Positions 7,312 to 62,373 of a DNA stretch of 63,426 nucleotides are shown piece by piece. Each line of letters opens with the position of its first letter. Positions within the stretch are counted from its first letter, which is position 1. The position numbers and the translations under genes were made by a program. Under the pieces are notes generated by a model that saw only the letters and a program-made list of their open reading frames with translations, was not told the origin of the DNA and ran no database searches. This stretch comes from Rhizaria sp. SCN 62-66 (Eukaryota). Location of the stretch: contig MEDY01000012.1 of the NCBI GenBank assembly GCA_001724265.1, positions 186,001-249,426 of the forward strand. The letters run 5' to 3'.

Positions 7312-10212
7312 TTAAGACGACGGAGACATGACATCCTTAGCAGCGGTTGCGCCAGCCCGACGCCCAAACACGACACACTCCGCGAGCGAGTTGCCACCGA
7401 GCCGATTGCGGCCGTGCAGCCCGCCCGAGGCCTCGCCGCACGCGAACAGGCCCTTGATGGGCTCGAGCGCGTGGCGAGATGCGCCAGTCACGCTGGGGGC
7501 GCGGAGAGCGCGCGCGTTGGTGTCGATCATAATCCCTCCCATTGTGTAATGAAGTGAGGGAGTCACGATCGCAACGGCCCACTCCGAGGGGGCGCTCGCA
7601 TCGCCGTTGATGGCATAGGGGGAGTATGTGTCAGCGAAGGGAAACGTGCGCTTGCCAAAGTTCTCACTGTCATCATTCGCAACACTACTATTCGAGCGCG
7701 AGTAAGACAGAAGGCTGGAGTGCAGTCCAGCGGCGGCCACAAGCCACTGCGGATAGCTGTCACTGTCACCTTCGCTGCCACTGTCGCTGTCACTAGAACT
7801 CTTGGTCTCACTCTCTGCATTGTTCTTGATCTTCTTCGTGTCAGCAATGGTAATGCCTGACATCTTCACAGCAGAGCAGAACAGACGCGCGGCCAACACC
7901 GAGCTCTTCTCACTGCTGCTCCGAGTGAGCTTCGCCCACTGTGCAGCAAACTTCCGAATCTCAGCGTCAACAGCGTTGCTGTGCCCACAGTCACTCAAAA
8001 TGACGCCCCACGCGCCCATGTCAGTACTGTCGACATCCTTGTTGCTGACAAGAGTGAACAGTCCCTTGGATGCGTAGAACTTTGCCGGACCAACGCCAAA
8101 CTCACGGACAGAAGCCGGGGAAAGCAGCAACGCCGCGGTGTGCGTCGAACGCGCGTAGATACGAGAGGACACGTGGTCACGAGTGCTGGAGATGATGAAA
8201 AAATAACATGTGAACAGATTTGCGGTTAGCTAATCGTATAATACTGTTTAGCTTGCTGCTGGAAATAGACCATTAGGTTTCGATGATATAAGACAGAGTT
8301 GGTTCCAAGGTCGTGCTTGAGCGTACCTAAGCTCGTTCACAAACCGCTTACCGGTCGTGAGATCAGCTAACACGCCGCCAACACCGCGCAGCGCCTCGGG
8401 GGCGAGGAACTTGGTCATCGCGTCGCGATCAGAGGGCATCACAAAGCCGGTGGGGTGAACCTGGACGTGGTTCATGCCGGTCAGCGCGGCGCCGATTTCC
8501 TTCATTTGAGGACAAAAGCAACGAATATGATAAGATAAAAACAAGGTTCAGCAATGACAATTCGTTATAGCATGCACTACACATGATCAGTTAGCGAGCG
8601 GTTTATGCAATTTCATGTTGCAATTATGAACAGAGGCATCGCAAACAAATACGCACCTCAGCGATATCGAGGCCATCGCCTGTGGCCCACGGTCCGTTTG
8701 TCGTGGGCAAGTTAAGCTTTGCCAGCTGGGGATTCCACCTCTGTAGCTGCTTCGTTGATGCAGCAAAGCCACCTGACGCCATGATGACCACCCTTGCGTG
8801 AATCAAATGCTTGCCAGCCTTAGCACCACTCGCGGCCGCCGTGGCAGCATCCTTGGACTTTGCAACATTCTCGTACCAAATGCCCTGCACGCCCCCGCGG
8901 CAGACCTTTTGACCTGCAGCACCGTCCACATCGGCGTTGACGTTAGCGCAAGCGATACCGGTGACGCGCACGCCAGTCGCGACGGTCACCATCGCAGCGT
9001 ACTTGCCGTCTTTGGCCGCGAGCGCAGCCTTGAGCCCCGCAGTGACCGCAAAGCCGACGGGTGGGGTCAGGCCCCTGGCGTCCGGTCCGGGCCGGTGCGT
9101 GCGCGCGGCGCTGTGCCCGCCGAGCGCGGTGAGCTTGGCCAGCGGCGCGACGCCGTGCTACTCGAGGAAGGCAACAGCGGCCGCGCTGTCCGTCACCAGC
9201 GCGGAGACCAGGACGCGCATGCTCGCGGGCACTGCGGAGTCGCCCGCATTGCTGGCAGCGCCCGTGCTAGTCGCCGTGACGACCGCAGGGTCCGAGTAGG
9301 CCAGACCGAAGTTGTCGTGGCTCTCGGCCCCGCTGTTGTCGCTCGTGCTCGCATGTGTGCTGCCGACGTTGTCAGCGTTGCTCGCGCACGACGCAAGCGT
9401 GTCCTTCACAAACAGCTCAACACTGTCGCCCTGAGCCCCACCGAGGCCTTTGTAGTACTCGATCTGCACGGGCGTGCCGACGGCGTTCTGTCCCGACGAC
9501 GCCTTCGCAGAGTTGCCGCCCAGCGCGGACTCCTTCTCCAGCAGAATGACCGTGGGCAGCCCAGCGGCACGCGCGGCGGCGGGGGACGCCGTGGCGGCCG
9601 CGGTGTCAATGCCGGAGGCGGCTGCAAGAGAAAGAGCGGTGTCGACGAGCTCGATGGCGGCCGAGAGGCCGGCGAGACCACCGCCGACGATGACTGGCGG
9701 AGGGGAGAAGTAGAAGATATGAAGGATATGACAATATGAAAGGCACGAATCATAAAGATAGGGAGCAATAAAAAACACAATTCACCTTAATGTCGTAACC
9801 ACTTCGATCAACGACAACTCACATATCCATAATAATGGTCGATTTCGAGGCAGAGCTGAAGATCACTCTTTAATGACTCTAACGTACCCACGCAAGAGGA
9901 GTCTTGAGGACACTTAACGTCGCCAGTCTGCTCTTCAAAAGCAAGAACAACGTTTTTGTTAGCGTTACCACCCGTGACAGTCGCAGCAGACGCAGCACCA
10001 GAGGTTGCGGTCACCGTGAGCGGCACCGCTGACGCAGCCGCAGAAAGCAGGCTGGCTGTGGCGGCAGCGACTGACTTGGCTGCTGCGGCGGAGGAGCTCG
10101 ACTATGAGAGACTGAGCAAAGTCCACGCAACACCTGAGATGCCAATGATAAAGGACACCACCGCGATCCACCCAGAGACACGTTGCCGCTCGTTTGTATG
10201 AGCTGGCGGCAT
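7312..10212 (-). CDS. Osm1/Frd1-like FAD-dependent fumarate reductase with N-terminal hydrophobic anchor; exons 10212-9888, 9693-8657, 8499-8327, 8185-7312; two in-frame TAG codons
   Basis: Motifs VVIVGGGLAGLSAA (formed across a splice junction), LGGNSAKASSG, LGGHSAARTHR, TTNGPWATGDG, VQVHPTG, LAPEALRGVGG, RFVNEL, LHYTMGG and GLHGRNRLGGNSLAECVVFG. TAG at 10104-10102 and 9160-9158; TAA stop. Confidence 0.9.
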
Positions 10213-11022
10213 CTGTGACTCGAAGGACGCATCAAGTTGGAGGGGACGTTGACAGAAATAGAGATATTGAGCTCAAAGCAGCTTGCTAACAAGAGTAATA
10301 TTATGGTATAATCTCAGACAGGTATTAAATCCATGGCATTCAGCTGCAGCGAGTTTAACGGTCGCTGCGATGAAATATTGCTTCTGCTAAATCTGCTAGC
10401 AGACTCATTCATGATAGTGGTTGTCATCATAGTCACGCCGCTGAGGAGATGCTGAGTCATGCGCGAAAATGACTCTACAGAGACTCAAAACGAATTGGAA
10501 GCAACGAGAATACAGCTTGGTATACAATTATCTTGCAAAGGGAGATGATTAAAGACTTTAATGAGTGTATTCGTGTCCGCCCACTGTGTTCAACGCAGTA
10601 TGTGACTTGGAAAGAATTATGAACAACGAACAGGGAAGTGGCGGATGCGATGAGTAAAGAAGCACAAACAATTAGCGCTGAGGAGTGTGTCATGTCAGAA
10701 TAGCAATAACATGCGTCATCTACAGAACAATTTCATTGTCGACCTGCATCCATGCGCATGCGATTGCAGTCCATGTTCAATGTTCAGAATGTACACTCTG
10801 GCTGATTGTGAGTGCCAAATTTAAAGCTAAGTACGATGAAATAGGAGTTCAAAAGGTATCAAAACAAAAAGCGGAACAAAAAAAAATGAAAAGAAATAAT
10901 ATGAATGAGTTAACTATCCACAGTTGAATGACAGCGTCTCAAATAACAATCGGGAGACATAATCTTTCTTTCTGAAGTATCACACCAACACAAAGCATGA
11001 AATCGGTGCTTGTGTTGTTAAT

Positions 11023-14000
11023 TTACGCGCGGGGATCAAAGATGAGCTTGTAGTTCCTCTGCGTCCTCTTCTTAAGCACAATCTTCCACATCTCGGCATA
11101 GTTGCCGTCCGCCGCGCCCGCTCCTGCCCCTGATCCATCGACCGCGGCGTTGGAGCCGTCGCCGAGGCCGGGCGACTCGATCGCGGGCGAGTTGTTCACG
11201 ATGCCGCCGGAGTTGCCCGAGCTGGTGCGCTGCGCGGAGTAGGCCTGCATGGCGCGCGTGAGGGCGTCGCGCTCGGCCGAGTCGAGCTCGAGCGCGTCGG
11301 GCGTGCCGCCGGGGTGTGTATAACGCGCCACGAAGGCCTCGAGCAGCAATGCGACGACAACGTTCATAAGCACCACAACGGTGCAAAAGAAGAAGCAGAC
11401 GAAGAAGACGCGCGGCCAGTGCGCCTTCATGGCGACTGTGAAGCCTTCGACGGTGAGGTTCCAGTTGTTGATGATCTGGATCTCGAACAGCGTGACGAGC
11501 GCGTGCGTCAAGTCGTTGAAGTTGTTCTCCCAGTAGTTGTTGTTGGCGTAGTACGTCTTCATGAAGTCCTCGTCCATCTTGCCCTGTGCGATGAGGTTGC
11601 GGAACAGGAAGATGCCGAGCATGGCAAAGAAGTAGAAGCAGCCGAAGAGAATCATCGCCAGGGTGCGGAGCGCGGGCCACACGCCCTTGACCGTGCTGAT
11701 GATCGCGCGCAGGCCGGCGAACCGCAGCAAGTGCCGGATGATGCGGAACACGCGCAGTAGCGGCAAGTCCCACAGTCGCGGGTTCACGGCTGCGCCGCCG
11801 GCTTTCGCGAGGCCCAGGACGACGCTGGCCGTGACCACGCAGAGGTCGAGCTTGGAGACGAGTCCGAGCCCCCAGTAGCGACTAGGTCCGTACGAGTACA
11901 TCTTCAGCACCATCTCGACCACGTACCAGCCCAGCAGCACGGCGCCGACGGCGTCGAGCACCTTGGGCCGCGGCAGCACGCCCTCGAGGTGCAGCGTGAT
12001 ATACACCGCGTGCACCACCACGACCGCGTCGATGCAGGCCTCGAAGGCAGAGAGGCGGACCACGTGGCGCACGCGGCGCCGCGCCGCGCCGCAGACCTGG
12101 TCGTCGGTCGACCGGTGCTTGCGGTGACCGTGCGCGGCCAGGACCAGGTCCCTGCTGTTGTTGCTGTTCGGATCACTACTGATGTTGCCGCTGCGAACGC
12201 CCGCCGTGGCGTACGGCGGGACGGGAGTCTGCGCGTTGCGACGACCGGTGATGGAGCTACTCTTGCTGTTGAGAGTTGTGACCGTGTTCGCGTTGACGGC
12301 CGAAACGACGCGGGGAAGCGCGTTGCCGCCGTTGCCGGCCGGCGCGTTGTTGCCGCCACGGCCGTCTTTGGCATACGAGAGCGCGTTCACCAAGCCTCCG
12401 TCGCCGGTGCCGCTACCATCCGCGATCTCGGCGCCCAGGGCCCCGACCCCGTTGTTGCAGTGGTGGTAGCGGCCGCCGCCGACGTAGCTCGAGCTCGCGG
12501 ACAGCGACGACGGCGACGGCGAGGGTGACGAGTCGCGTAAGTACCCGCCCGTGTAAGGGGCTCCCGACGACGTGTAGGTGTCCGTGCCCGCAGTCACCTG
12601 TACCGACCGGTCATCACCACCAGTTGCATTCACAGTAGTCGCAGAGCCATTCGCGGCGGCAGCGGCGGCGGCGGCAGTGCCGGCGGCGTCTGCGGCTGCG
12701 AGCACCGAGGTGTGCTTGGGCACGCGCGAGCTGCGGATGCGGCTTGAGTTCAGAACAACAGGAGCGTTGATATCACCGCCACCCGCAGTCTTCGTAGCCG
12801 CACTCACAATGTCGGTCTTGGACTCAGCGTTTGCGCTAGCGTTGCTGCCGTGAGCGGGGGCCCAGGGCGAGGCGAAGTGGGCGGTGCCGCCAACAACACG
12901 CGTCGGGTTCGCGCTCGCGTCATCGGTGTTGCCGACATCAGCACTGTCGTCAACTTGCTTTTGGTATCCGTCGTGCTGCTTTTGCTTCTGCTTCTGTTTC
13001 TTCGACTGAGTCTGCTGTGCCTGCTGTTGGTCGCGCCCCTGACTCTGCTGAGTCTGCTGAGACTGCTGCTGAGACTGCTGCTGAGACCGCTGCTGCTGCG
13101 ACGGCGGCGGCGGAGGGCGGTGCTGCTGCCTGAACTGCACGTCGATGTAGTCGCAGAGTCGCACCCACTCCCTGGCATCGAGCGAGCCGGTGTGCGTGAT
13201 GTCCATAGCGTTGAAGATGATGTCGATCTGCTCAACCGTCAGCGTCGGCCGCACGTAGCGCAGGAAGCGGTGGAACAGCGGCTTCGTGATGCGCGCATGC
13301 GCCAAGTAATCGAGCTCTAGGATGCTGTCCGGCGACGTTAGCGCTCTCGAGTCCAGGAACGTGCGCAGGATCGCGTTGGAGCCGTGGGCGGCGCTGAGGC
13401 TGGCGAGGTTTCTGCTGTCGCCGACGCTGTTGCTCTCGGCGGCGGCGCCCGCGTCGGGCGCGGGCAGCGCTTGCAGCTCGGAGACCGCGACGCCCTTGTT
13501 CTTAGCGGCGCTGCGCGTCTTGGATTTGCCGTTCTTGCTCTTGGAGCCGCTCTGAGCGATGGGGCTCGTGTCCAAAGACAAGCCGTGGATGCCGACAACA
13601 CGGACGCCGGCGTCGACGGCGGCCTCGGCGCCGTGGGACATGAGAGGGCTGTTGTTGCTGGAGCTGCGGAGCGAGCCCGCGAGGCCCTGGCCCAGCCTCA
13701 TGCCGAAGCCGGGCAGCGCGACGCCGGCGACAGCGCCGGTGGCAATGCCGTTGCTGTTGTTGATGCTGATGCCGTTGCGAGCAATAATCGCGAGGTCATC
13801 ATCATCATCGTCCTCATCATCATCCTCGTCTTCGTCGCTATCGTGCTCGCTGCCGCAGCCACAGTTGCCGCTGCTGGTGTCGCAGTCGCATTCCCCGTTG
13901 CAGTTCTTGCCCGCCGGCTGTGGACTCGATGGGCTGTTACTGAGTGCAGACCTCGGAGTCTTGTTGGCACCGCGGCGCCTGACCCCGCCGCTGCTCGCAG

Positions 14001-17871: not shown

Positions 17872-19438
17872 ATGAGCAACTACCCTTCGCACGGCCACGG
17901 TGCCCACGGGCACGATGACGACGACGACTACGACGGCGACGGCTCCGCCATGTCGCCGTCCCACTCGGCCGCCGCCGACGCCGAGGCCGCCGCCGCCGCC
18001 GCAGCCGAAGCTGACGCCGCCGAAGCTGCGCAGCAGTCGCAGGAATTCAAGGACATTATGATGGAGAACGAGATCCTTGCGAAGGAAAACCGTCTGTTCC
18101 ACGCGTACCTGCACCGCCACCTGCCCGACCTGCGCGACGACGAGCTCGACACGGTCGACCTGCCGCTGCCGCCCGGCGCGGCTCCCGCGTCGGGCAACAT
18201 CCCGCTCGCGCTCAAGTTTGCTATGGCGCTGCAGGAGCAGGACCTGCGCGTGCAGCAGCTCAAGGAGCTCAGCGACAAGGTCGCCGAGGACACGTCGCTG
18301 CTGCGCGCCATTATCGAGGCGATCAAGATCCGCACGGACGAGCTGCGCAAGGACACGTACGAGTTCCAGCGCGACGTCGTGGTCCGCGGCGAGCACCCGC
18401 GCTCGGGGCAGATCATGGCCGAGATCGTGCTGACGTTCCTCGCGCAGCGGCTCTCGTCGCGGCACTCACTGGCCCAGACGCTGACGTCCAAGGCTAAGGT
18501 GCTCAAGGACCAGCTGGGCAAGCTCGAGGCGCAGACGCAGTCGCGCGAGGGGCAGAAGGGGCGCCCGCTGTCGACGGACTTCCACCAGCTGCAGATCAAG
18601 AACCAGCAGTCTGCGCAAAAGGTGCGCGAGCTCAACGCTGACCTGTTCCGCGCAAAGTCGTCGACGGTGCGTGTCGTGCAGCAGCTCAACTCGCGCCGCA
18701 AGGAGCTTGCAGAGGCCACGGCGCGCGGCGCGCAGCTGCAGAGCGACAAGAAGGAGCGCTCACTGGCCGCGGAGAGGCTCACGACGGAGCTGGCCACGGT
18801 CAAGAATGAGGTCAAGGCCGACCAGGTACGGCGAGCAATAGGCCGTGACGACATGTCTTTTGATGAAGCTAATAGCAGTCTATGATTAGTATATCATCGT
18901 GAATGATCTATAATTTGACATAATCTATTAAACTAACACTTTCTCACTTTCGTATCGTACTTGCGTTTGTCTTATCTTTTTCCTCCTCACAGGCCCGCCA
19001 GCGCGTGCTGACGGTGCAGCAGAGCAACCCCGACGTGCCGCACGTGATCGACTACGTGCAGCAGAAGGCGCTGGCCGCCGAGCTTACGGCCGAGGTTCGC
19101 AACTGGGCGCGCAAAGTCGAGATCGCGCACATGGCCGCCGCCAGGGCCAGGTACGTCTATGGTGTCGCCGTCACTAGCTATCACAGATAATGAACGGGAT
19201 TTGAACCATGCTATTGATTTGTCTACGTTGTGCTGGAGTGATGTGCGATCATTTGATATGAAATCATATGATAGCTCGACTAATCTCTCACTTCCGTTTT
19301 TGTTGATTATGTCGTTCCCGCAGGCAAGCGCTGGCGCGCGCGACGGCGCTGCGGACGCAGCAGGCCGAGGCGGTGCGCAAGAGCCTCCAGGCCGGCGGCT
19401 CCATGTTCCTGCCCCCGCTGGCAGGGGCGCGCAAGTGA
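17872..19438 (+). CDS. CCDC113: CCDC113/CFAP263-like ciliary coiled-coil protein; exons 17872-18825, 18993-19150, 19324-19438
   Basis: ENRLFHAYL, YEFQRDVV, DFHQLQIKN and PHVIDYVQQK...WARKVEIA match recalled CCDC113 motifs. Canonical introns; TGA stop. Confidence 0.8.
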
Positions 19439-23309: not shown

Positions 23310-24845
23310 ATGAAGTCATTCAAGAATACCGCGTTGTGTGTCGGTGTTAACGTTGACACTGTCATCGACGTTGTATGCGAAGGCGAACGCACCGGTGGCA
23401 TCTTTCGCGAGCCTAGCTTCCCCGCCACTTCTGACTTTGACAAACGCCCTAACGTCAAGAAGCCGAGCGACAAGAAGGCGACCGCTAAGCAGTCCAGGGC
23501 TAACGAAGGCGAAAGAAACAGCTATTGGACGCCTGAACTTCGCGCCGAGTTTCTGACTATGCAGGGCATCGGCGTGACCCCTGAAGAGCAAGCGGCCGCA
23601 AGGGAGGCTGATCGTGTCCGGAAGGAGAAGGAGGAGGCGGAGCATCGGGCCAAAATGACGCCTGAGGAGCGCGCCGAGACTGACACACGGCAGGCAACGC
23701 GCGATGCACAACAGAAAGTTGTCGACGATGCTGTGCAAGTTGCGCTGCGGGCGCGCGCGCGTAATCTAGCGGCCGCAGCAGCCGCCCACAAGAGCGCTGA
23801 CACTCCAAGCACGAGCGGTCGGAGTCGCCGCAATAGCAGCACGAGCAGTAGCAGCAGCCTTGCCAACGCGACTGAGAGCGCTGCTGACGTGAAAGAGATC
23901 GACGACAACACGCATATCGACACCAACATCCGCGTGAGTCCGGGGGGCTTCCTCCAGATCGGCGACTACCCCTACGAAGGCGTATTGCTGCTCACCGACG
24001 TCGACCACCCGGCGGAGCTCTACGCGCCGCTTGTGACGCGCATTTGGTGGCCGGCGGACATGCCGATGCCCGAGATGCGCCCGCGCCCGCTTGTGGGCAG
24101 GGGGCTGCGGCTCTCATTTATGTTCGCAGTTTGCCGCCGCGGGCTCTTCTGCTTCAAGCTCAAGGACGGCGCCTTCAACGGCGACGACTTCCTCGAGTGG
24201 GCGTAGCAGTTCGAAGACGAGGCGCACACGGTCTTCCCCACGCTGCCTGAGGCGCCGACGCTGCTGCTGGACAACACGCGCATGTTCACCGCGGAGGCGG
24301 AGTGCGTGATTGAGTCCGGCGGCGCCCGTGTGCTGCGCACCGGCAAGTACACGGTACCCGCGCCGCCGACGCGCGGCCGCGGCGTCAATTTGGTTGCGAA
24401 CATCGAGAAGAAGCTTAAGAACAAAGGAGTCGTGTACCTCGACCGCGCCGCGCTCAAGACAGCGATGTGCGAGGCGTACGAGGAGGTCAAGGCCAACGCC
24501 GAGAAGGAGTTCGACTTCAGCGAGATCATCGACCACCAGTTGCGCGCGTGCCATGACGGCATCCAGAAGGACATGTTCTACCGGCCGATGACGGAGGCGA
24601 TGTCCACGCACGCCGTCGGAATCCGCAAGGGGTACATTCAGGTGTGGGTCGACATGAGCCTCGACGACAGCAGCGGTGACCGCGGCAGCGGCAGTGCGGG
24701 CCGTGGTCGCGGGCGCGGGCGCGGTCGTGGTCGCGGCCGTGGCAGCAGCCGCGGCGGGGCCGCGAGGGCGGGCGCTGGGTCGAGGCAGAAGCGTTCCAAG
24801 CCTGACTTCGATCTCGACAGCTATATCAGTGACGATGATGAATGA
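23310..24845 (+). CDS. Tc1/mariner-IS630 (DDE_3-like) transposase-derived protein with in-frame TAG at 24204-24206 and C-terminal RG repeats
   Basis: ORFs 23310-24206 and 24282-24845 share a frame and join through the TAG. RGLRLSFMFAVCRRG...GAFNGDDFLEWA*QF...LLLDNTRMF...GARVLR follows the DDE_3 pattern, but the PPYSPDLNPIE motif is degenerate. TGA stop. Confidence 0.65.
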
Positions 24846-25260: not shown

Positions 25261-27390
25261 TTATTTCTTATTGTTGCTCTTGACACCTCGGTTCGGGCTC
25301 GCTTGCCTCGCCGCCGCAGTGCCGCTGTTGTTGCTATTGCTCACAGTCACACGATTCACACGGGGAGTGCTAACAGTCACAACTACACCGGTCGCAGGCG
25401 CAGCATCACTGTCAGCAGAAACGTTCACTATCAAACCAGACTCAGACGCGGCGTTGCTCGCGCCTGCGTTCGTGTTCAAGCCCTTGAGTCCGGTGTCAAG
25501 ACCCCTGAGCAGGATCTCGGCCTCCTTCTCGCGCTCCAGCGTCTGCACGCGCGCGCTCGCCGCCGCGGCCTCCTTGCGCGCCGCCATCAGCTTTGCCGCG
25601 CCCTTCTCGACCTGCGTCTGCAGCACCGCCACGCGGTCCGCCAGCGCAAGCACGCGCTCACGATCGCGGCCCGCGCGCTCCTCCGCCGCGTCGTTAAGTT
25701 TAGCCGCGCGCGTGAGCTTTGCGCACTTGCTCTCGAGCGCGGCCTCGCGCTGCAGCGCCGCCGAAAGCTCTTGCTCCGCCAGCGCGCGAGAGAGGTGCAT
25801 CGCGACGGACATGCGCTCAGCAGCGGCCAGAACGCCCTGCAGCGAGTCGCGCTCAGTGGTGACAGCGGCGAGCGCGGAAGTTAGGCCGCCCAGCTCCGCC
25901 CGGGCCGAATCGAGCGCGGAGAGCGCGGACCGGCGCGATGCCGCCGCGGAGGCGGCTGCGGAGGACGAGGACGAGACGCGGGACAGGAGGAGCTGCTGCT
26001 GCAACGTCGCGTACGCGGATTGGTGGGAGAGAATGAGCGTCGCCTGCTGGGACGATAGCAACTGGAGCTGCTCAAGGCGCGCGAGCAAATCGCGGTGGTC
26101 GCGGCGGAGCGCGGTCAACGCAGCGACAGCGGCGGCTGCACTCAAATTAGCGTCACTCTCGCTGATCAACGCGGACGTTGAGTCAGCGGCGGATGTGATG
26201 GATCGAGGAAGTGTTCCATTAGCAGCACCGTTGTCAAAGACGACCAAAGCAGAGTCTGGCGTCGCGCTTGTGGCACTAAAGTTAAAGTTGTCAGCGTTAT
26301 TGTTCTTCATGTGACACGCACAAATGCAAGTCGTACTGTTACAAACAGGGCTGGCTGTAGCGTTCAGTTTCTGTTGCTGTTGCTGTCGCTGTTGCTGTTG
26401 CTGCTGTTGGGCCGGTGACGCAACAACCAGCGTCTGCAGCCGCGGTGTCGACGTCGCCGCAGCGGGATGCAGCGTCGCCGACGCGGCTTGACTTAAAAGC
26501 TCGACGCGGCGCGCCATGTCCCCCGAACTGAAGCCGCCGCCAAGAGCGCCCGCGCCGGCGCCTGTGTGCGCGGTCGGCGGGAAGCCGACGGGGGCGACGA
26601 GAGAGACGACGCTGCTGCTGGTGCTGTAGCTCGTATTCGCGTGCGCGGTATTGTTACGGTTAGCCTCGATGTGCGCGACCTGGGGCGACAAGTAGTGCGT
26701 TGGCGCCAGCTGGGCGGTGAAGCGAGACTGGTTCATCTGCAGCTGAGACTGTGAAGGCACGCGCGCGACACCGGCATGTCCGCCACTGCTTCTCGTGGTG
26801 CTGCTATAAGCCGGCGCCATGTTCCCCGGTGTATGCGCGAGAGAGTATGGCGCGAGCGGCCGCGCGTGTGGCGCTGCGATCGGCAGCATAGCAGCGTCCG
26901 CTTTGGGCGCACCAAGCGACACGTTGGCAAGCAGCGTGTGCGGGGACTGGCGCGACGCAGCAGCAGCAACAGCAGCAGCAGAGAGGGACTTGGTGTCAAC
27001 GCGCGACGGGGTCGACGTCGCGGCGGTGGCGGAGGACTCGCTGGCGCCGAACGTGCAGACGGGCTGCTGCGAGTAGATCGAGTGCGAGTGGTGCAGCACG
27101 GACGGCGGCGTAGGGGACAGGGCGCTCGACGGATGCAGCGACAGGGTGGCGCCAGAGACCGACTGTGTCGCTGAGCCTGGCAAAATCAGAGAACCGACAG
27201 CGGCGTTGCGCAAAGATGATGAAGCGGATGAAGCCAAGGCAGGGCCAGACCCAGAGCCAGAGCTAGTGGAGGAAGCTGCTGGAGCGCTGCCGTAGAGCGT
27301 GTGCCCAGAGCCTGCACTGCTGTGGAACGCTGGAGGGGAACGGGCCTCAAGCACCCGGCCCTCGGGCGTGAAAGGTACTTGCGTAGACAT
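25261..27390 (-). CDS. Hypothetical protein, S/A-rich disordered N-terminus and C-terminal coiled coil
   Basis: Long single ORF; first ATG at 27390 (MSTQVPF); heptad-like A/L/E/R-rich C-terminal part; TAA stop. Confidence 0.7.
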   Translation of the reverse strand: MSTQVPFTPEGRVLEARSPPAFHSSAGSGHTLYGSAPAASSTSSGSGSGPALASSASSSLRNAAVGSLILPGSATQSVSGATLSLHPSSALSPTPPSVLHHSHSIYSQQPVCTFGASESSATAATSTPSRVDTKSLSAAAVAAAASRQSPHTLLANVSLGAPKADAAMLPIAAPHARPLAPYSLAHTPGNMAPAYSSTTRSSGGHAGVARVPSQSQLQMNQSRFTAQLAPTHYLSPQVAHIEANRNNTAHANTSYSTSSSVVSLVAPVGFPPTAHTGAGAGALGGGFSSGDMARRVELLSQAASATLHPAAATSTPRLQTLVVASPAQQQQQQQRQQQQQKLNATASPVCNSTTCICACHMKNNNADNFNFSATSATPDSALVVFDNGAANGTLPRSITSAADSTSALISESDANLSAAAAVAALTALRRDHRDLLARLEQLQLLSSQQATLILSHQSAYATLQQQLLLSRVSSSSSAAASAAASRRSALSALDSARAELGGLTSALAAVTTERDSLQGVLAAAERMSVAMHLSRALAEQELSAALQREAALESKCAKLTRAAKLNDAAEERAGRDRERVLALADRVAVLQTQVEKGAAKLMAARKEAAAASARVQTLEREKEAEILLRGLDTGLKGLNTNAGASNAASESGLIVNVSADSDAAPATGVVVTVSTPRVNRVTVSNSNNSGTAAARQASPNRGVKSNNKK

Positions 27391-27890
27391 TATAGTGCCA
27401 GACGATAACAAAGAATGCGCGGACGCAGGCGCAGGAGGCGCTGAATGTGTCAGCAGTTCAGGATGAGTGACGAGTAACGGACTACGTCTGGCTCGAATGA
27501 AAGACAAATCTGTGGAAATGAATAATCAAATGTGCAAAATTATTAGTTGTTATTAGTATGTGTAAAGTGAGTTACATACGCGTCAACGGATACTGAGTGG
27601 CGAAACATGCAAACAAAATGGGAGTTCAGTCTGTAAGAGACGTTCACAGCCACATACCACTTGAAGACGCAATCGAGACGCACACGTGTTCGAGATCGCA
27701 TCAATGACAATATATTCTACAATAGCACCAACATCAAAACTCGTACAAGTATCATCACTCTAATTCAATGAAACACAAGTCATACTTCGCGTTGAATATT
27801 ATGCGGCAGAACAGCTGAGGGGCACTTCCAACAATGAAAGACCAATGAGATGGGAGATTGTGAAGTCTAACGCTACGAAGGATGTATTAT

Positions 27891-28436: not shown

Positions 28437-28439
28437 TTT

Positions 28440-33069: not shown

Positions 33070-33121
33070 GTGCTTGATCACTCACTTACTCGGTCGTGCT
33101 TGATCACTCACTTACTCGGTC
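33070..33121. repeat. Perfect 26-nt tandem duplication overlapping the MCCC1 stop codon
   Basis: gtgcttgatcactcacttactcggtc at 33070-33095 and 33096-33121. Confidence 0.9.
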
Positions 33122-51359: not shown

Positions 51360-53304
51360 TCACAGCCACTTAGACATGTAGGGGCCGTCGAGCTCGTAGC
51401 CCATCTTGCGGTAGTAGTGGCGCGTGCCGACGCCGGCGATGATGGCGAGTTTCTCGCTGCCGTGCTCGTCGCGCGCGATGCGCTCTGCCTCTTCCAGCAG
51501 CAGCATGCCGAAGCCCTGGTGCTGGAACTTGGTCGGATCGCGCGCGTTGACCGGTACCGCGGAGCCGTAGACGTGGAGCTCGCGGATCAGGCTCGAGGGC
51601 TGGCCCACCAGCTCGGGTCGCGTCGTCTCAGCAGAGCACTGGCGCAGGCGAAGCAGCCCGATCAGGATGTCCTGCTTCGGGTCCTCGTACGCGAGGAACG
51701 TCTCCCAGCCTATGAAATTATCAATAACAAGAATAACAAGATAAGAGAATGAGTGAGAGAATGAAAGAGCGATTAAATGTTTGATCAGCATCACAGATTA
51801 AGCATCAAATAAGATAAGACTATGTCAACATCTGCGCAGATGTAGTCACGTACCTCCGTTTGCAGTATAGTCGCGGCGCACGAGCTCGACCTGCCCCGGG
51901 ATGATCTCCTCGTGGATCTGCTTGATGCCAACCTCGCGCGTGCGCACGTCACGACAATGCAGCCCCAGGTCCTTCATGCGCCGGTGCGCCAGGTCGCGCA
52001 GGTTGCCGTGGCCGACGCCCGACGTCACCAGCGGCATGGGGATGTCGCGCTGGATGCGGTAGATGCGCGTCCACGGCGGGACAAGCGCGAGGATGCGCGC
52101 GACAACGTCGACGAGCGTGTCGGGTGGGTAATTGTGGTAGCGGCCCGTCTTGTACAGCTCGTAGAGGCCCGTGCCGCGAATGACCAGCGTCGGGTACAGC
52201 TTGAGCCCGTCGGTGCGGAAGTCAGGGTTCGCAAAAAACTCTCGGAACTGCTCCAAGTCGCGCTCCATGCCCATGTTGGGCAGGTCCGGCATCATGTGCG
52301 CGATGATCTTGAAGCCCGCGTCCTTGGCCATCTTGAAGCTCTCGGTGACTGCGCGCACCGTATGGCCGCGGTTGGTGTCGCGCGCGACGTCCTCGTGGAC
52401 GGACTGGACGCCAACCTCGAGCCGCGTGCAGCCGTAGTGGAGCATCTCGTGGATGTGGCGCCGCTGGCAATAGTCTGGGCGCGTCTCGATCGTGAGACCG
52501 ATGCACCGCGTGCGCGACTGCTCGCAGAAGCGGATTGCCTCGGCCACGGAGCGCGAGCGGTGGCCCGACAGCGCGTCGTGCAGGTTGCGGATGAAGTAGT
52601 CGCGGTAATCCTCGGCCAGCGACATGAAGGTGCCGCCCATGACGATGTACTCGACCTTGTCTGTGGGGTGGCCCAGCCGCTGCAGCTGCTCTACGCGCCC
52701 GCGCGCCTGCTTGTACGGGTCGTAGCGGGCGCGGATGGCGCGCATCGAGGTCGGCTCGTAGCCCGTGTAGGACTGCGTCGAGTACTCGAAGTCCGAGTCG
52801 GGCCCGCCAGGACAGTAGACGCAGATGTTGCCCGTCATGGCGATGTGCGGGCAGCGGTGCGGCTTGGACATGACGGCCACGACGGCGACGCCAGAGGCGG
52901 AGCGGATCGGTTTGGCCATGAAGATGTCGCGCAAGACGGTCTTGTACTTGACGGGAATCGCGGCGATGACTTCGACGAGCTTGGGCGTCTGCGAGCCGTG
53001 CTTGGTGGCGATGCGGGTGCGCAGCGCGTTGGGGTTGATCGGCTTGCCGGCTTCGTAGAGCTGGATGGCCGTCGAGATGATCTCAGAGATTGTGCGCACA
53101 TGGTCCAGGGCCTGGTCCTCGGCCGTCTTCGGGGCGATATAAAAGTACAAAGCGAGAAAGTGGTGAGCTGCACTGTGTTGAAGAGAACGAGCAAGCAAGA
53201 TGGAAGCCGAGTGCAAGTGGGGCTGAAAGCGAAAGCATATAACGAGGGAGGCGTACCTTCTTACGACCGTGGCGCTGAACAACAATATCCTCTTCGTCGT
53301 CCAT
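51360..53304 (-). CDS. ELP3: Elongator subunit 3 (radical SAM plus acetyltransferase); exons 53304-53257, 53126-51854, 51709-51360
   Basis: [67 protein letters not shown] stop. Confidence 0.97.
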
Positions 53305-53673: not shown

Positions 53674-56600
53674 ATGTTTTTTCATAGATGGGTGACACTT
53701 GTTGTCCTCTGCATGATCATGACAGTGTTATTCCGCGCAGCCTTTACTATCACCACTGGTGCCCCTCTTTCAGTGTCGCATCAACATGACTCCTCGACAG
53801 TACGCTCACACCTCCACGATTTGTATAGCGATTTTATTCATATATATCACAACTTATTCGCGCGCCGCCTTGATTCCCCCCTAAATGACTTGTTTTGTAT
53901 GTGGTAACATGGTATTAACTCTGAATATTATGGTTCCACCGATATATCTTTACTTTTATCTCCGCCAACCGCTCACCTCGTGCTCGCTCTCTCGGCTCGT
54001 ATCACTCGCGTTTTCATGTGCCACAGACACAGTCCGTGTCAACAGTCAACGTTGCATTCCCGTCTATTGCGGCGGACCCTGTTGCAGCCGCCGCATTGAG
54101 CGCAATCATCACCGAAGCCTCGTATACATCGGTATCCGCCGCGCTCGCTTCAGCCTCTACCAACAATCACAACTCCACCCAGCAGCAACAGCAGCAACAG
54201 CAGATTGCAGTCGCCTCCGCTGCCGCCGCCGCGGCTGCCGTGAGCAAGATCTCCCTCTACCTTGATCAACATGTGCGCAAACACGTCTCGAGCGCAAGTC
54301 AGTCTTCTCACAGCAACGTCAACACAGCCGAGGGTCAGACAGACTACGTCGACATAACCGCGACGTCAACGTCAGCGCCGGCAGCTAAGTCTCCCCTTGC
54401 GCACTCTGCGGCGTCGCTGCTCGCTCCCGTAGCGCCTCTGCAGTCATCGCTCCTGTCGTACGTCCTGTTTGCGCTGCTGGAGCTCGTCTACGCGAACGCG
54501 GTGCCGCTGGCGCTGCTGGCCCTGTCGACGCTCATGGTTTGGCGCGTTGTGCAGGACGTCGTGGCCGTGCGGCGCCGCTGCGTGGACAAGCAGGGCCGCT
54601 CCGTGTCGGCCGAGGACGTGGTGTCGTACCGCGTCGACTACTGGCTGTCGTACTCGATCTGGTCCAAGCCTGTGCTGCTGATCGGACTCATCCTGCTGCT
54701 CGTCACGCTCGGTGGCATCGTCTTCGCTGTCGTCACGGGCGACACGCTGCCTGCGGCGATGTGGCAGGTCTGGCTGCTGATCGTCGACACGGGCGCGCAC
54801 GGTGAGTTCGGCCCTCTGCACCACCGCGTCATCGGGCTCGTCATGACCTGCTGCGGAATGGTTGTCTTCGGTTTCCTCGTCGGTATCGTCACCGAAGTCA
54901 TCGCCGACAAGGTCGACCAGCTCAAGAAGGGCCGCTCGCGCGTGATCGAGCGCAACCACACGCTTATCTGCAACTGGAGCGATAAGACCATTCCGGTCAT
55001 CAGCGAGATCTGCATTGCCAACGAATCCCTCGGCGGCGGCACCATCGTGCTCCTGGCCGACGAGCCCAAGCAGGACCTGGAGCACCGTGTCGCCGAGGCC
55101 GAGATCAACCTCCGCGGCTCCAAGGTTGTCGTCCGCTCGGGCTCTCCCATCATGCTCGGCGACCTCAAGAAGGTCTCGGCCCAGCACGCGCGCTCCGTCG
55201 TCGTCCTGGCGCGTGAAGCCGAGCTGGCGCCCGACGAGAGCGATGCGATGACGCTGCGCACCGTCGTCTCACTCATGGGGCTGGGCGCGGGCCACACGGT
55301 GTGCGAGCTGCGCGACGTGGACAACCGCGACATCATCCAGATCGTCGGCAAGAAGCGCGTCGAGTGCGTCGTCGCGCACGATATCATCGGCCGCATCATG
55401 ATCCAGGCAGCGCTCCAGCCGGGTCTCGCGCTCATCCTCGAGCGCATCCTTGGCTTCCAGGGCAGCGAGAGCTATCTGAAGGAGTTCCCCGAGCTTGTGG
55501 GACTCACGTTTGCGCAAGTCACCACGCTGTTCTACTCGGCCGTGGTGATCGGCATCCGCAAGGCCGACCCTGATGCGGCCAGCAGCGACGACGACGACGA
55601 CGACGACAACGCGGCTGCTGCCGACGGCAAGAAGGGCGGCAAGAACGCCAGCGACGGTGAGACATGCGACAGCGACGACTGTGTCGCGCTGACGACCGAC
55701 GACGGCGACGCTCTGAGGCCCTTTGCGCGCTCTCCGAGCATCAACAACGACGGCAACAATGCCAACAATGTGCTTACGCGCAATAGCGCTGCCAACAACA
55801 ACGCCAGCGCAACTGCGAGCGTGTACAGCTACGGCGGCAGCAGCAGTGGCGCCAGTGCCGCCGCGGCCGCCGCCGCCCTGGCCTCGGGTGGCACCTTCAG
55901 CTACACGCTGGGGAGTAATCCTTTCATGTACCACCGCGACCGCACGACGGGCAAGATCTACCGTGGGTTCCGTTCTTCGCAGCGCAGCGGCGCGGCCGCC
56001 GCCGGGGGCAAACTGCAGCGCGCCAACAGCACCAACAGCACGGGCGCGGGCGGGCTCTTCCCCAGCAAGGGCCTCGGCGGCGACGGCGCGTACCCGTTCT
56101 CCCCCACGCAGTCCAACACGGCCATCAGCGAAGAGGCGACGCTGGCGCTGGGCGGGCTGGGCGCGGCCCCGCGCGCGCCGCGGCTGCTGTGGCTGAACCC
56201 GCCGCTGGACACAGTGCTGGAGAAGGGCGACCAGGTCGTGGTGCTGGCCGAGGATGACGACTCGTACTGGCCCGATGAGCAGCGTCTGGCCAAGCTGCGC
56301 GCCGAGATCCACAAGCTCAACGCCAGCAACAGCAAGGCGGTGGTGGGTGCGAAGAAGAGCGCGACTGCCGGCATGCTCGCGATTGATCTGAACGCACCCC
56401 CGTCTCTCACTGACGTCAACAACAACAGCAACAGCAGCAACAACGCGAACGCTGACAGCAATAACGCGTGCAAGAACACAAGCCGCTGCTCACGCTCGCA
56501 CGCGCACACGGCGTCTGCGTCGCTATACGAGCCGCCGCGCATCAAGGCAGCGCGTGAGTGGATGCGCAAACACCGTTCCTCATCATCGTCCTCGCTCTCG

Positions 56601-59012
56601 GTCCAGCCCTCGCCCGTCTTCACCAGTGCAGACGCCCACGCTAACGCGAAACCCACCGCCAGTGCCAAGGTGCCTAGTAGTAGCGCTGACGATGACGGCG
56701 AGCACACGCTGTTTGAGCGCCGCGTGACGCACTTGCTCTTCATGGGGTGGCGCCGCGACATCGACGACATGATCATCGAGCTCGACGGCTACGTCGGCCC
56801 CGGGTCGACGCTCACGCTGCTGTCCGAAGTGCCCATCGCGCAGCGCGAGCTGGCCCTTGCGCTGGGCGGGCTCGACGTGCGCCGGCTGACCAACGTGGAG
56901 CTGCGCCACAGCGTCGGCTCCCCACTCTCGCGGCGCCACCTGAGCACGCTCGACATGACCTCGTTCGACTCGGTGCTGATCTTGGCCGACGAGACGTACG
57001 AGCAAGACGTGGCGAAGATGGACTCGCGCTCGCTCACGTCGCTGCTGCTCGTGCGCGACATGAACGAGCTTCACGAGACGCAGCTCGTCGAGCGGCTGCG
57101 GCGCCAGGGCGGTTCGCTCGTCGCCGCCGCGGCCACCGCCAGGGCCGAGGCCGAGGCCGGGCTCGGGCTTCCCGTGCTCCGCACCCACCACGGCCGCACC
57201 GTCTCGACCTCGTCCTTCGCCGACACCAGCGCCCTCAGCGGCATCGGCGCGCACGCCGCCGCGAGCGCCGCGCACAGCACGCACAATGCGAGCACCGTGC
57301 TGAGCGCCAGCGCTTCCGGTCTTCTCGCCGCCCCCGCTGCCGCCGTGGCGGGCGAGAGCAGCGCGGGCGCCGAGGGCTGCGACGACGGCGTGTCGAGCCA
57401 CGCCAGCAGCGGGCTTGGCGGGCTCAGCAGCGGCGTGTTCATGGGTCGGCCCGGCATCGCGCGCGCGCGGTCACTGGGTGCACAATCGCACTCATTCCCC
57501 AAGTCCTCTTCCGCCAGCTCCAATGTCGCAACAACCGCGAGTATCTGTGACGAGGACGACGAGTGCGGCAATGCTGCGGGCGCTGCGGCGGCGGCGGCGG
57601 CGGCGGCTGCAGCGGGCGACGACGGCAGCGACCTCGTCGTCGTCACCAACGCCAACGCTGCGAACGACGGCGCGAGCTGTGTGGACAACGGCAAGACCCC
57701 CAGTGGCGACATCGTGGTGGCCAGCCACGACTGCCCCGGCTCCGGCGTGACCGCGTCTGTGGCGCACCCCGCGCGGTCGGCCGTGGCGGTCGAGACCGAG
57801 TCCGACTCCGTGGCCTCGGCCGAGGTCTCCACCCCGCTGTCGCAGCACTCATCCATCACCACCACCGCCAACGCCGCCGCCGCTGCTGCAACTGCTGCTG
57901 CCGCTTCCGCCGCTGCGACGGCGCGTGTCTCTGCTGCTACTGACTCAGCTGCGACTGATGCGACTGCGGTCAGCAACGGCAACAGCGTGACGTTCCGGAC
58001 CAATAGCAACACCACGACTCTCACCGCGCCCGCTAGCATCAGCTTCTTCGACATCAACGCGGTCTCTAACACTGATAGCGCGGCCAACACTGCTGTCGTC
58101 CAGGGCCCCTCTGCTGCTGAGCAGCCGCACCAGAGTCTGCACGTGCAGGTGCAGGGCACGACGACATCGAGACCGATCGGCGACATCATCCCGCCCTCGC
58201 TGCGCCAGGCCATCCCCGCCGGCCTCCGCTTCCGCCGCCGCCTCGACTCCTTTGACGGCAGCGGCGGCGCGAACGCGGGCAGCAACGCCAGCGGGTCTGG
58301 TATGCCGCCGAGCCTTAATCGCCACAGCACAGTCGCGCTGTCGAACTCTGCCTACTCTACCGCGAAGCGCAACGCTGATGCTAACGGTAGCGCTACTGGC
58401 AATGCTGATGGCAAGGGCATCTCGCTCAAGGACATCGCACTCACGGTCACGCAAATCGACTCTGAGCAGCGCAGCAACGCCCACTCAAACGCCAATAGTG
58501 GTGCTAATGGCGACTCGGAGGATATGTTCAGTCCTTCCGACATGCTCACAGGCGCGGGTCTCACGGTCATCAGCGAGATTCTCGACTCGCGCACCAAGCT
58601 CCTTGTCTCCCAGGGCGGCTCCAGCGACTACGTGGCGTCGAACGAGCTCGTCTCTAAGGTCCTCGCCATGGTGGCCGAGGAGAAGGCCATCGCGGAGCTG
58701 CTCAACGAGCTCTTCTCCGCCGAGGGCAACGAGATTTACATGCGGCCCGCGCGGCTCTATGCCGAGCTCGGGGAGAAGGCCAGCTTCTGGGAGGTCTCCG
58801 CGCGCGCACTGGTGCGCGGCGAGGTCGCCTTCGGGTACCTGCGGCGCCCGGGACTCAGCGACGGCGAGCAGGAGAAGGCCGACGGCGAGGAAGATCTCGG
58901 CGCGGTCGGGTACCTGATGCTCAACCCCACCGACAAGGGCCGGCTCGTCACGTGGGGCCGCGAGGACATGCTTGTGGTGATCTGCTCGCGGTGCGGCAAC
59001 AAGGTTTATTAA
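53674..59012 (+). CDS. CASTOR/POLLUX/DMI1-like cation channel with large low-complexity insertions; exons 53674-53799, 54027-59012
   Basis: SYRVDYWLS, filter IVDTGAHG, LKKGRSRVIERNHTLICNW, RSGSP, SDAMTLRTV, AHDIIGRIMIQAALQPGLA, GWRRDIDDMI, DSRSL, ISEILDSRT, SNELVS and EGNEIY; TAA stop. Exon 1 is inferred from ACA|GTACGC and CACAG|ACA. Confidence 0.88.
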
Positions 59013-60186
59013 AGCAGGAAGCGTTACGAGTGAATTTTCGTCTTCATGTCGCACCTTCGCCGAGTTCTGCTTTATGTGATCATGTTGTTACGTTGCTGAA
59101 AAAGCGTCAAGTGTTGCTCCGTAATCCATCCTATACTTTTGTACTGTAATTCAATCATTTGTTTCGTTCTTTTTATCCTCCTTGTAGTATTTTAGTCACC
59201 GTTTGTTTCTGTGTTGTTCAGTCAAGTCGTGTCAGCCGCGCCTGCACTCCCTCCGTATCTGTTTATCGTCATTCCCTTTCATGTTGGCTTGGTATTGCTC
59301 GCGAAACTACGTCGTGTGCTGGCAGCTGTGCTGTTGCTGATGTAAGTCCATGTTTGTGTGTGTAATTCGTGTCAGTGGTTTTGCCCATAATCCTTGCTTG
59401 ATAGTGATGTGGTTCGTCAGTTTAACGAAGCCTATGCCACTTCCTCAAGCATGGAAATGATCACCTGCTCACACGCGTCCTCCAACATTCACGTGAACTT
59501 GTATTATCTGAAGCACGCGTATAGTTGCCGCAAAAATCATCTGCAATGATGAGCCGCCATCTCATTTGTCTTAATGTTCTGCTACCATCTGTGTAAAGAT
59601 CGAAACGACCACAAAGCTTAGCATCCCTTTCAGAACTAAGGAATGTTCATAGTACCATCGATCATATCTCACGCTTGATTATACCATAGAGCTTTGCATC
59701 ACCCTGTTTGTGGTGTTGGATAAGATAATAACATGCCTGCATCAGTCATCAGCTGAAATGTTGTATTGTTTTCTTGTTTGTGATAGCACAAGTATACAGT
59801 GTATTTGCACTGTGATGTGTGTACAATGGAAACGACGCAACTGCTGCTCTTCTTGTTATTGTTTGCTGCTGTCGCTTATATTGGTCTCTATCATTTCTAA
59901 ATGCTGTATTGTGCAATTACGCAAGTTTCTATTTCAATGCCTTGCTTTGTTTTCGTTCTTCGTTGATTGATTCACCTGTCCTAATAATCGCCTTCTTTTT
60001 GTTTTCTCCTGACTTCATTTTAAAAACACGCAAATAATCATACAAAATCACATCTGTATATGTTCGTTTCGAGCATAAGATTCTAGGTCAAAGATAATCA
60101 GGTGTATGAAACGTGCGTGCGTACATATTTGCATGCGAGACTAAATAAACATCAATAAATAATCGAAAAGAAGCGCGTGTGCACCT

Positions 60187-62373
60187 TTAGAACGAGGACA
60201 CGCTGCCAAGCACAACAGCGAGGCGGAAACCCGTACTCTCAGTATCTCTCCAGATGGGCGACGGTGACAGTCCGACGCCGCCAGCGCCACCGCTGCCCAC
60301 GGTCGCTCCGTCAGCCCGGCTCACAGTCATCACGTCGCCGCCACTGCTTGCAGTCAGCCCTTGCGCGTGACTGTTGCCGATTGGAGTAGGCTCAGCCCCG
60401 CGGCCGGGCTTCCCGGTGACGCTCTCGCTCTGCGCAGGCAGCGGCGGGAAAGCGTGGTTCAGCCGTGAATCGCAGGCCCAGGACTTGGTGAAGCCGGCCT
60501 CGAGTCCCCACAGCCGGCTCGGGGAGTGCGAGCGTAGCATCGCGCTGAGCGAGCGGTCCGGGGTCGAGGCGACGCGCAGCGAGTGGAGCCACTCCCACTG
60601 CGACGGCGACTATGACAGCGTTTGGACCGGAAGGGATTGTGACTGTGCTGCGTTGCCACGGCTGCTCGCCGGCACGAACGGCGCGAGAAGACTCATAACC
60701 GTGTTCGTCACCGTGCTCTGCGCCGCAGTCAGCACACCGACGGCGTCGCTGGTTGTTCCTGTGGCGGCGGCACCGAAGTCGAGCCGCGACTCGGTCGTGA
60801 GCAGCGAGGCGTGCACGACGCAGGCCGCGGCCACGGACGCCTGCGGCGACCACTGCTGCGGCTGACCGTGGGCAGCAGCGGGGCTGTGGGCGGGCTGGAA
60901 CAGCGGGGCAGTGACGCCGAGAGAGAGCGTTCCAACGCCGTTGACAACGAACGACGTCGTGTACGGAATCGGGGGTGGCGCAGCGAACAAAACAGCACCA
61001 TGGCCACCGCTGCTCGCGATAACATCGCTGCAGGCAACAGAGGCGGCGGTGTTGCTCTTAAGACTAGGACTAGAGCTAGAGCGTGTCGGAGCGAACCACC
61101 CGAGCACCGTCCTGACCGCGCCCGCGACGGCCGCGGCGGCGGCGTCGCCTTTGTGCTGCGGGACCGTGGCCACGGCGGCAAGCGAGAACGAGTCGTCGCC
61201 CGACTTGGGGCTGATCAGGTACTCGATGCCGGTGTCGAGCGTGACGGCGCCGCGACCGACGCCGCCCACAGTCACGGAGCTCACGGTCGCTGACTGTGAG
61301 CGCGAGCTAGATGACTGTGAGTCGCAGCCTGCTGTGGCATTCTGACTGTCATTGGTTAAATGGAAGCGTTTTGCAGCCATAACGCCCCATAACGAGCCAT
61401 CTGAGCAATATTTAACGCCAACACTGCTCTGTTTGCAGTCATACCGCGCCTCAGCGCCCCAGATCTCTGGTGCAGAGAAAGGCATCGCGCTCGCACTCTT
61501 CGACGCATCCTTCGCTGCAGCATTATTCGCATTCCCAGCATTATCGTTCCCATTGGCGTTGATCGCTGCAGTGTTACCGTCAAGACCACTGCGGGGGTTC
61601 ACAGGATTGCTGTTGCTGTCGCCGACGCTCTTGCTCATCACAGCGCATTGCCTACTCGGGGTGAGCGTAAGCGCGCTCGGCAGCAGCGCCGGCGGCTGCG
61701 ACGTGACGGCAAACCCGCGCACCGTAAGCCAGGGCGTCACGCGCGCCTCCAACTCAACGTCACTCACGCCGTCCGCGTCGGTGCTCGCTTTGACGACCAC
61801 GGCGGCACGCTGCCGGTGTGGGCGGCGCTGCGTCATCACTGAGTAGCACTCCAAAGACGCGGGCTCGGTGTGCGCGCCGTACACCGCAGCGCCGGCGCTG
61901 TCGTGGGAGGAGTTGCTAGGAGTGATCGGCGAGCAAGAGTCGAAAACGACGCCACTTGAACCACTGTTGATTGCTGTGCCCGTGTTTGTGGTACCATTGC
62001 GCGAAGGCAGCGGAGCAGGGCCGCTGAAGTACCCCACCTCGATGGCACGCGCACGCTCAGTCGTGAACGCAGAAGATAAAGCGTTCGTGAGCGCGTTAAA
62101 CGGCGATGTCGCGGTTGCATTCGAGGTGCCAGTTGAGCTTCCAGTTGCAACGGAAGCAGAGGAGGCATAGAGGCGTGAGAGCTCAACAGTTGCGTCAGCG
62201 CGAGCCTCGACGACCGCGGCGCGGTCTGAATACACGGCAACACGCAATGCAGTCGTGTTTGAGGGCTGCGAGGAAATTGACAGGATGTCGTCAGTGTGTG
62301 CGCGAAAGTATGCTAAGTCACCGGGGTTGTCTGGGCTCACTGGAGCGACGTAAGAGCCGGACAGCGCCTGCAT
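60187..62373 (-). CDS. Divergent Tom40/eukaryotic-porin-like beta-barrel with expanded loops; in-frame TAG at 60612-60610
   Basis: ORFs 60610-62373 and 60187-60540 share a frame and join through the TAG. N-terminal DNPGDLAYFRAHTDDIL recalls the Tom40 NPG motif; amphipathic strands (WGAEARY, SVGVKY, LDTGIEYLI); terminal FRLAVVLG; TAA stop. Family assignment is tentative. Confidence 0.55.

Follow-up and report, generated by a model that had tools for sequence, protein, structure and literature searches.

In-frame TAG codons in three genes

The 63,426-nucleotide stretch of contig MEDY01000012.1 analyzed here (positions 186,001 to 249,426; hereafter the window, with coordinates counted from its first base) is tightly filled with eukaryotic genes, three of which are otherwise intact and carry a total of four in-frame TAG codons. 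Two of the codons are found in a FAD-dependent fumarate-reductase-like gene (FRD, minus strand, 7312..10212), one in the orphan gene P0003 (plus strand, 23310..24845), and one in the gene P0004 (minus strand, 60187..62376). The same codons (minus 10104, 9160, and 60612; plus 24204) had been named in an original prediction made from this DNA, and their coordinates and contexts match what was found, with an open frame on both sides of each. As argued below, UAG is probably translated as an amino acid in the source organism, with only UAA and UGA terminating translation.

The FRD gene was recognized by a match to the Pfam family FAD_binding_2 and by tblastn with 30 homologues. Splice sites read in the sequence delimit exon 1 (10212-9888), which is followed by intron 1 (9887-9694) with the consensus donor GTACGT. 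Exon 2 (9693 to ~8657), exon 3 (~8502-8329), and exon 4 (~8184-7315) make up the rest of the coding sequence, and the gene closes with a TAA at 7314-7312, an end that is supported by homology. One of the two TAGs (9158..9160, context GAG-TAG-CAC) is located in exon 2 inside the FAD_binding_2 domain, where the translation reads AAVAFLE-TAG-HGVAPLAKLTALGGHSAARTHRP. In 30 of 30 FRD homologues a single ungapped tblastn alignment crosses this site, and 25 of them have a residue opposite the TAG. The column was tallied as S14, Q3, E3, H2, G2, D2, K2, R1, L1, and A1, with five further gap entries that stem from intron TAGs in other alignments. Because the alignment to all 30 homologues is conserved and ungapped, a residue must stand at this position, and, judged by the sequence, no intron can be fitted at the site.

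The other TAG of FRD (10102..10104, context TCA-TAG-TCG) lies in exon 1, downstream of a predicted N-terminal hydrophobic segment and within a low-complexity Ser/Ala stretch. It shares its frame with the ATG at 10212, and it is this frame that encodes the hydrophobic segment; no ATG occurs in the sequence between the TAG and the exon 1 donor. The donor, G/GTACGT at 9888/9887 (the slash marks the exon-intron boundary), is in phase 1, the phase required by the acceptor at 9695-9694 for the FAD-binding motif VIVGGGLAGL, and both TAGs of the gene stand in one reading frame after exon 1 is spliced to exon 2 at 9693. The frame that contains TAG 10104 is the only one in which ATG 10212 can be joined to the FAD-binding exon across a consensus donor of the right phase. 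A GTGAGT at 9811 was considered as the exon 1 donor and rejected as out of phase; the GTACGT at 9887 fits instead.

The gene P0003 spans 511 codons and ends in TGA at 24843-24845. Its in-frame TAG (24204..24206, context GCG-TAG-CAG) has strong coding potential on both sides, with coding scores of 51.5 and 74.6 for the two parts of the gene and of 14.3 and 14.0 for the 30 codons immediately upstream and downstream. The surrounding sequence is uniformly GC-rich and has neither an intron signal nor an AT-rich intron nearby. The sole database relative returned by a homologue search is the gene's own N-terminal fragment, P0156, a 298-aa protein that is found on six contigs and stops exactly at the TAG. 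A weak match to DDE_3 runs across the TAG (E = 0.054, residues 262-330), and P0003 may be a domesticated transposase. The protein has a long Lys/Glu-rich helical stretch, a Gly-Arg repeat, and an acidic tail, and the depth of the read runs suggests that the gene is single-copy. An AlphaFold2 model from the single sequence was uninformative (mean pLDDT 41.5).

The gene P0004, of ~729 codons, ends in TAA at 60189-60187, beyond which the sequence is AT-rich, and a Pfam scan of it returned no family. Its in-frame TAG (60610..60612, context TCA-TAG-TCG) falls in a variable loop, opposite an 8-residue gap in the homologue. Past the TAG the open frame continues for 140 codons to the TAA at 60189, where the sequence becomes AT-rich, and the G+C content of the 150 nt directly downstream of the TAG is 0.71. 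Only two relatives were found in the search, P0158 and P0160, both of them metagenomic. The former, a 540-aa protein of another organism encoded in a single open reading frame (ORF), aligns both before and after the TAG; past it the match follows the pattern W.H.LR..TPDR...PS.LW.L.A...W.C..R..HA.P...ESV.GK, and the end of P0158 resembles the end encoded in the window. Since P0158 carries, in one ORF, a conserved region that lies downstream of the TAG, this codon is read here as coding, and the possibility that it is the true stop of P0004 was rejected on the same in-frame continuation of the homologue. ORF fragments that end exactly at TAG 60612 are present on three contigs. The N-terminal DNPGDLAYFRAH motif and the aromatic last residue may resemble those of mitochondrial outer-membrane barrel proteins.

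Gene ends, introns, and codon counts

None of the 22 complete genes in the window ends in TAG; 15 end in TAA and seven in TGA. Terminators were assigned by chaining high-scoring coding segments, and the ends were checked by homology where possible. Six of the 22 were checked individually, those of ELP3, FRD, biotin carboxylase, CCDC113, and EHD by homology or Pfam domain and that of GET3 by eye. The original prediction had counted 20 complete genes, 12 with TAA, eight with TGA, and never TAG; the last part stands, and the numbers are superseded by those given here. If TAG normally closed 20% of the genes, a share that is assumed and not measured, the absence of TAG from 22 ends would have p = 0.007. 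The G+C content over the 150 nt past the true stops is 0.31-0.57, as against 0.65-0.77 past the four TAGs.

Among the ends checked individually, the TGA of ELP3 (51360..51362, minus) follows the conserved C-terminus GPYMSKWL, as established by tblastn with four ELP3 homologues. The TAA of the biotin carboxylase-type gene (33112..33114, minus) stands directly past the biotinyl domain, with positions 5-72 of the 73 in the Biotin_lipoyl profile ending five residues ahead of the stop. The CCDC113-like gene ends in TAA (19188..19190, plus). Its first in-frame TGA, at 18883, sits inside an intron (18826-18953, plus; donor CAG/GTACGG), and the CCDC113_CCDC96_CC profile (positions 128-174 of 177) continues past this intron in 18954-19187. 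The GET3/ArsA gene, with an ArsA_ATPase match, ends in TAA (6659..6661, plus) by a three-frame reading. Its two introns (donors GTATGT and GTACGT) contain a TAA at 5967 and a TAG at 6388, and the latter was rejected as the terminator of the gene, being inside intron 2. The end of the EHD gene is supported by its EH domain.

The original prediction had also held that no exon contains an in-frame TAA or TGA, and this is what we observed. The three codons that a scan reported as in-frame, TAA 5967, TGA 47515, and TGA 34751, all fall in introns with consensus donors, and every apparently in-frame TAA or TGA of the window's genes is inside an AT-rich intron. The introns of the window are ~65-195 nt long and visibly AT-rich (13 introns with the donor read), and their donors are of the type GT-N-[CT]-G-N, with AG/GTACGT, GTATGT, GTGCGT, and GTTCGT forming a tight consensus. 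Motifs resembling CTAAC often occur near the 3' end of the introns; they could help gene modeling and perhaps the placement of the organism.

The four TAGs are followed by the codons TCG, CAC, CAG, and TCG, and the context TCA-TAG-TCG is common to two of them. As the original prediction had stated, no single readthrough motif is shared; the only common trait is the pyrimidine at position +4 (T, C, C, and T). A purine follows 16 of the 22 true stops, and a Fisher estimate for this difference gives p ~0.014. Sense TAG is rare, with four occurrences in ~13,900 codons as compared to 549 CAG and 81 CAA, which amounts to ~0.6% of the Gln codons.

The window has a G+C content of 58% by base counts (52-67% across 3 kb bins), and its coding frames have a G+C content at third codon positions (GC3) of ~0.85. 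In addition to GET3/ArsA, the fumarate-reductase-type flavoprotein FRD, and the CCDC113-like ciliary protein, the Pfam families found include a large ion channel, a Ulp1-like protease, the ribosomal protein S10e, an RRM/zinc-knuckle protein, a biotin carboxylase, a kinase, an EHD-type dynamin, a PPR protein, a metallophosphatase, a CIR-like protein, ELP3, and a Castor/Pollux-type channel. A minus-strand orphan at 25264-27525 (standard code) returned unnamed clusters only in a search of the Protein Atlas.

Other assemblies, a second strain, and the source organism

The four TAGs are not assembly errors, because identical contigs carry those of FRD and because ORF fragments, found on public contigs as long as 168 kb, end exactly at the two others. 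Two JGI contigs (L001 and L002) match the window at 100% identity along 5,059 and 2,025 bases, a range that includes both TAGs of FRD, and a metagenome scan with FRD exon 2 returned only these two window-identical contigs and no diverged relatives. A comparison with read runs covered 20 kb of the window, with TAG 60612 lying outside it. Within this part, contigs of the runs X2 and X3 had 0 differences from the window. The tables for X2 and X3, two runs filed under different studies and years, match record for record except in three depth bins and some loose-end rows.

The run X4, from another study, contains a strain with ~99% identity to the window. Among the differences listed, 10 fall in the FRD coding sequence. 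Seven are synonymous (7480, 8864, 8930, 8984, 9041, 10111, and 10147) and two are non-synonymous (7919 and 8133), and at the codon of TAG 9160 the strain has CAG (plus-strand 9160 A>G). Downstream of TAG 9160, five of seven differences are synonymous. TAG 10104 is kept in X4, and the nearby differences 10111 and 10147 are synonymous in the frame that contains it. If ~28% of random changes are assumed to be synonymous, a share of seven in nine has p ~0.003. Because the TAG at 10104 is common to both strains and the differences are seven synonymous versus two non-synonymous, purifying selection acts on FRD downstream of a TAG that is older than the divergence of the strains. A TAG that two strains share ahead of selected coding sequence would hardly be expected of a true stop.

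Two further observations concern the libraries themselves. At GET3 exon 1 (5321-5495, plus), a more distant relative is also present in X4 and X6; for one contig 14 differences from the window are listed, and since 11 of the 14 are at third codon positions, these samples also contain another, related species. The polyA RNA run X6, whose contigs span only a small part of the compared sequence, has a contig over 24105-24327, across the TAG of P0003, with one difference. It was not counted as mature mRNA, as contigs of the same library are unspliced elsewhere; one of them (18830-19090) runs through the CCDC113 intron, which points to a retained intron, to RNA not yet spliced, or to DNA in the library.

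The window DNA was found again in bioreactor and wastewater metagenomes of several studies, and its source is an uncultured, GC-rich, intron-bearing eukaryote of such samples. Its ELP3 shares 89% identity with the metagenomic protein P0036, 86% with the metagenomic protein P0038, and at most 78% with the other matches listed. These two proteins served as proxies in an ELP3 tree whose rows do not include the window's own ELP3, and they branch outside a well-supported clade formed by the fungi and animals sampled. A scan of genome contigs with P0038 additionally returned a contig (L003, 1-4096) in a metagenome-assembled genome (MAG) labeled Ferrimicrobium sp., which encodes an intron-less, eukaryote-type ELP3 that is 71% identical to P0038 and ends in TGA. 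The bacterial bin has probably been contaminated with eukaryotic DNA, and the contig was set aside as unrelated to the code question, on which it has no bearing.

The meaning of UAG and comparison with known codes

The in-frame TAGs, the absence of TAG from 22 gene ends, the recurrence of the codons in independent assemblies, and the TAG at 10104 conserved between strains support the central proposal of the original prediction, namely that UAG has been reassigned and that UAA and UGA remain stops. Provided that UAG is translated, glutamine is its likely meaning. The prediction had favored glutamine and kept leucine as a possibility. Glutamine now has one direct support in the CAG of X4 at 9160, where a TAG/CAG pair is the expected look of a synonymous transition if UAG encodes glutamine, and this mildly favors it. 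The homologue column is variable at this site, and glutamine is put forward as a preference, not as an established assignment. By analogy with other lineages that use such a code, a tRNA-Gln with the anticodon CUA would capture UAG, or tRNA-Gln CUG would decode it by a strongly enhanced near-cognate reading, and eRF1 would have lost or weakened its recognition of UAG. TAG may first have been lost as a terminator and may now be returning via CAG-to-TAG transitions at tolerant sites. A young reassignment is suggested by the rarity of sense TAG, which would fit an incomplete one as well, by its absence from conserved residues, and by the pyrimidine after all four codons. We also entertain, more tentatively, that the window represents an unrecognized eukaryotic lineage early in a UAG-to-Gln reassignment, in which TAG has gone from the gene ends and is reappearing at strain-polymorphic sites with a weak termination context. 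The GC-rich sequence, the cilium-associated CCDC113 gene, and the ELP3 proxies outside the sampled fungi and animals are the features attributed to this lineage.

A number of points weigh against the translation of UAG. The sample is a single 63 kb window with four TAGs, in which ARAGORN and Rfam found no tRNA genes and Pfam scans of the ORFs returned no member of the eRF1 family. None of the four TAGs occupies a conserved Gln column; 9160, the one site within a domain, is variable, and the site in P0004 is in a gap. A single polymorphism bears on the identity of the amino acid, and nonsense TAGs, too, arise most often from CAG. The independence of the other assemblies may be limited, as X2 and X3 may be one data set, and the system that the window derives from may also have yielded these two runs and the JGI contigs. 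The X6 contig across TAG 24204 proves nothing, since contigs of that library run through the CCDC113 intron.

These points bear on three other explanations, the main rival being that UAG is decoded ambiguously. In this case eRF1 would still recognize UAG, some genes elsewhere would end in TAG, and the four codons would be read through at poor termination contexts by a near-cognate tRNA-Gln or a weak suppressor, yielding full-length protein in lower amounts. The very low count of sense TAG (four in ~13,900 codons, or ~0.17 per gene) also fits a few leaky sites, all four are at non-conserved positions, and the preference for a pyrimidine after the TAGs (4/4, versus a purine after 16/22 true stops) could indicate that the release factor retains some recognition of UAG. 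Leaky decoding would nonetheless have to account for 0 of 22 genes ending in TAG and for four sites without a common readthrough motif, and FRD would require two readthrough events in succession despite purifying selection. We regard this explanation as unlikely. A standard code is harder to maintain and appears improbable. It would make the TAGs nonsense alleles, arising from recent loss of function or gene decay and fixed in the strain or in one haplotype, with the absence of TAG from 22 ends a sampling accident. The CAG of X4 at 9160 also has the look of a fresh C-to-T nonsense mutation in the window's strain, and P0003, with its weak transposase-like match, may have originated as a transposase and could be undergoing decay. 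That only TAG interrupts the genes is not significant on its own, since with GC3-rich codon usage ~2/3 of single-step nonsense mutations would give TAG (an estimate from codon counts) and TAG-only interruptions are expected even for random nonsense. It is difficult to reconcile with this explanation that three of 22 genes are hit, one of them twice, without a frameshift, TAA, or TGA, that TAG 10104 is found in two strains, that the FRD sequence behind it has seven synonymous versus two non-synonymous differences, and that no gene ends in TAG (p = 0.007 at the assumed 20% share).

It is very improbable that the TAGs are removed from the mRNA, either as tiny in-frame introns (e.g., an 18-nt or 30-nt GT...TAG at 60612) or by U-to-C editing. 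Each TAG ends in AG, GT...AG stretches of 18 nt and 30 nt are in frame at 60612, where the homologue has its gap of eight residues, and the ELP3 intron ends in CATAG. The 13 introns with a read donor are, in contrast, ~65-195 nt long and AT-rich with GT-N-[CT]-G-N donors, no similar sequence flanks the TAGs, and the homologues need a residue exactly at 9160, without a gap. U-to-C editing in the nucleus is not known to act as a general mechanism.

Nuclear code changes are rare, and those that split UAG from UAA are rarer, with a handful of lineages named in the portions of the two papers on which this comparison draws (PMC5304391, PMC11687900). If UAG is translated, the window would add an independent case in a GC-rich organism of wastewater reactors and thus a data point on the origin of such codes, and rare sense TAG together with a TAG/CAG strain polymorphism could show an early phase of reassignment. 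Should the early-reassignment reading be true, the window would offer a natural snapshot of a codon-capture stage that is gone from established variant codes. There is also a practical side, in that gene callers using the standard code truncate the proteins of this organism at TAG; the fragments P0156, P0159, and P0161 are already in public collections.

The closest parallel is Iotanema spirale (Metamonada: Fornicata), in which UAG encodes glutamine while translation ends at UAA and UGA (Panek et al. 2017, PMC5304391), a pattern referred to as the Iotanema type and formerly NCBI table 15. That UAG-only codes are known from Iotanema (Gln) and from the rhizarian exLh (Leu), as the original prediction had stated, agrees with this paper. 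Iotanema, an anaerobic flagellate of the gut, was studied through its transcriptome; 204 UAG codons were reported in 126 of its genes, 22 of 28 fell on hyperconserved Gln columns, and the terminators comprised 104 UAA, 15 UGA, and no UAG (PMC5304391). The window resembles it, as far as that account extends, in having in-frame UAG in conserved genes, no UAG ends, glutamine as the likely meaning, and UAA as the predominant terminator with UGA second (15 and 7 here, 104 and 15 there). It differs in that the window has four TAGs in 22 genes with none on a conserved column, and in that its organism is GC-rich, intron-bearing, from wastewater, and known from metagenome contigs only.

In phyllopharyngean ciliates and Protocruzia tuzeti, UAG and not UAA encodes glutamine, which for some of them was inferred from uncultured MAGs (McGowan et al. 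2024, PMC11687900). The window shares with these ciliates, in the part of that study considered, the uncoupling of UAG from UAA and the glutamine meaning. Ciliate genomes in general are typically AT-rich with tiny introns, unlike the window with its 58% G+C, GC3 of ~0.85, and introns of ~65-195 nt with GTACGT-type donors. UAG alone is likewise reassigned in exLh (UAG = Leu) and in Scotinosphaera (UAG = Ser), both of which keep UAA and UGA as stops according to the passages concerned (PMC5304391, PMC11687900). The informative site of the window, in contrast to these, pairs TAG with CAG and not with a Leu or Ser codon; leucine or serine is a less likely meaning of UAG. The context-dependent codes of Condylostoma, Parduczia, and the karyorelicts also translate a stop codon within genes, but there the same codon ends genes as well, whereas none of the 22 genes in the window ends in TAG. 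A full-text literature search, supplements aside, found no report of UAG reassignment in a wastewater eukaryote. The type of code proposed here is thus already known from Iotanema, Protocruzia, and the phyllopharyngean ciliates, and the organism of the window would be a further case of it in an uncultured lineage.

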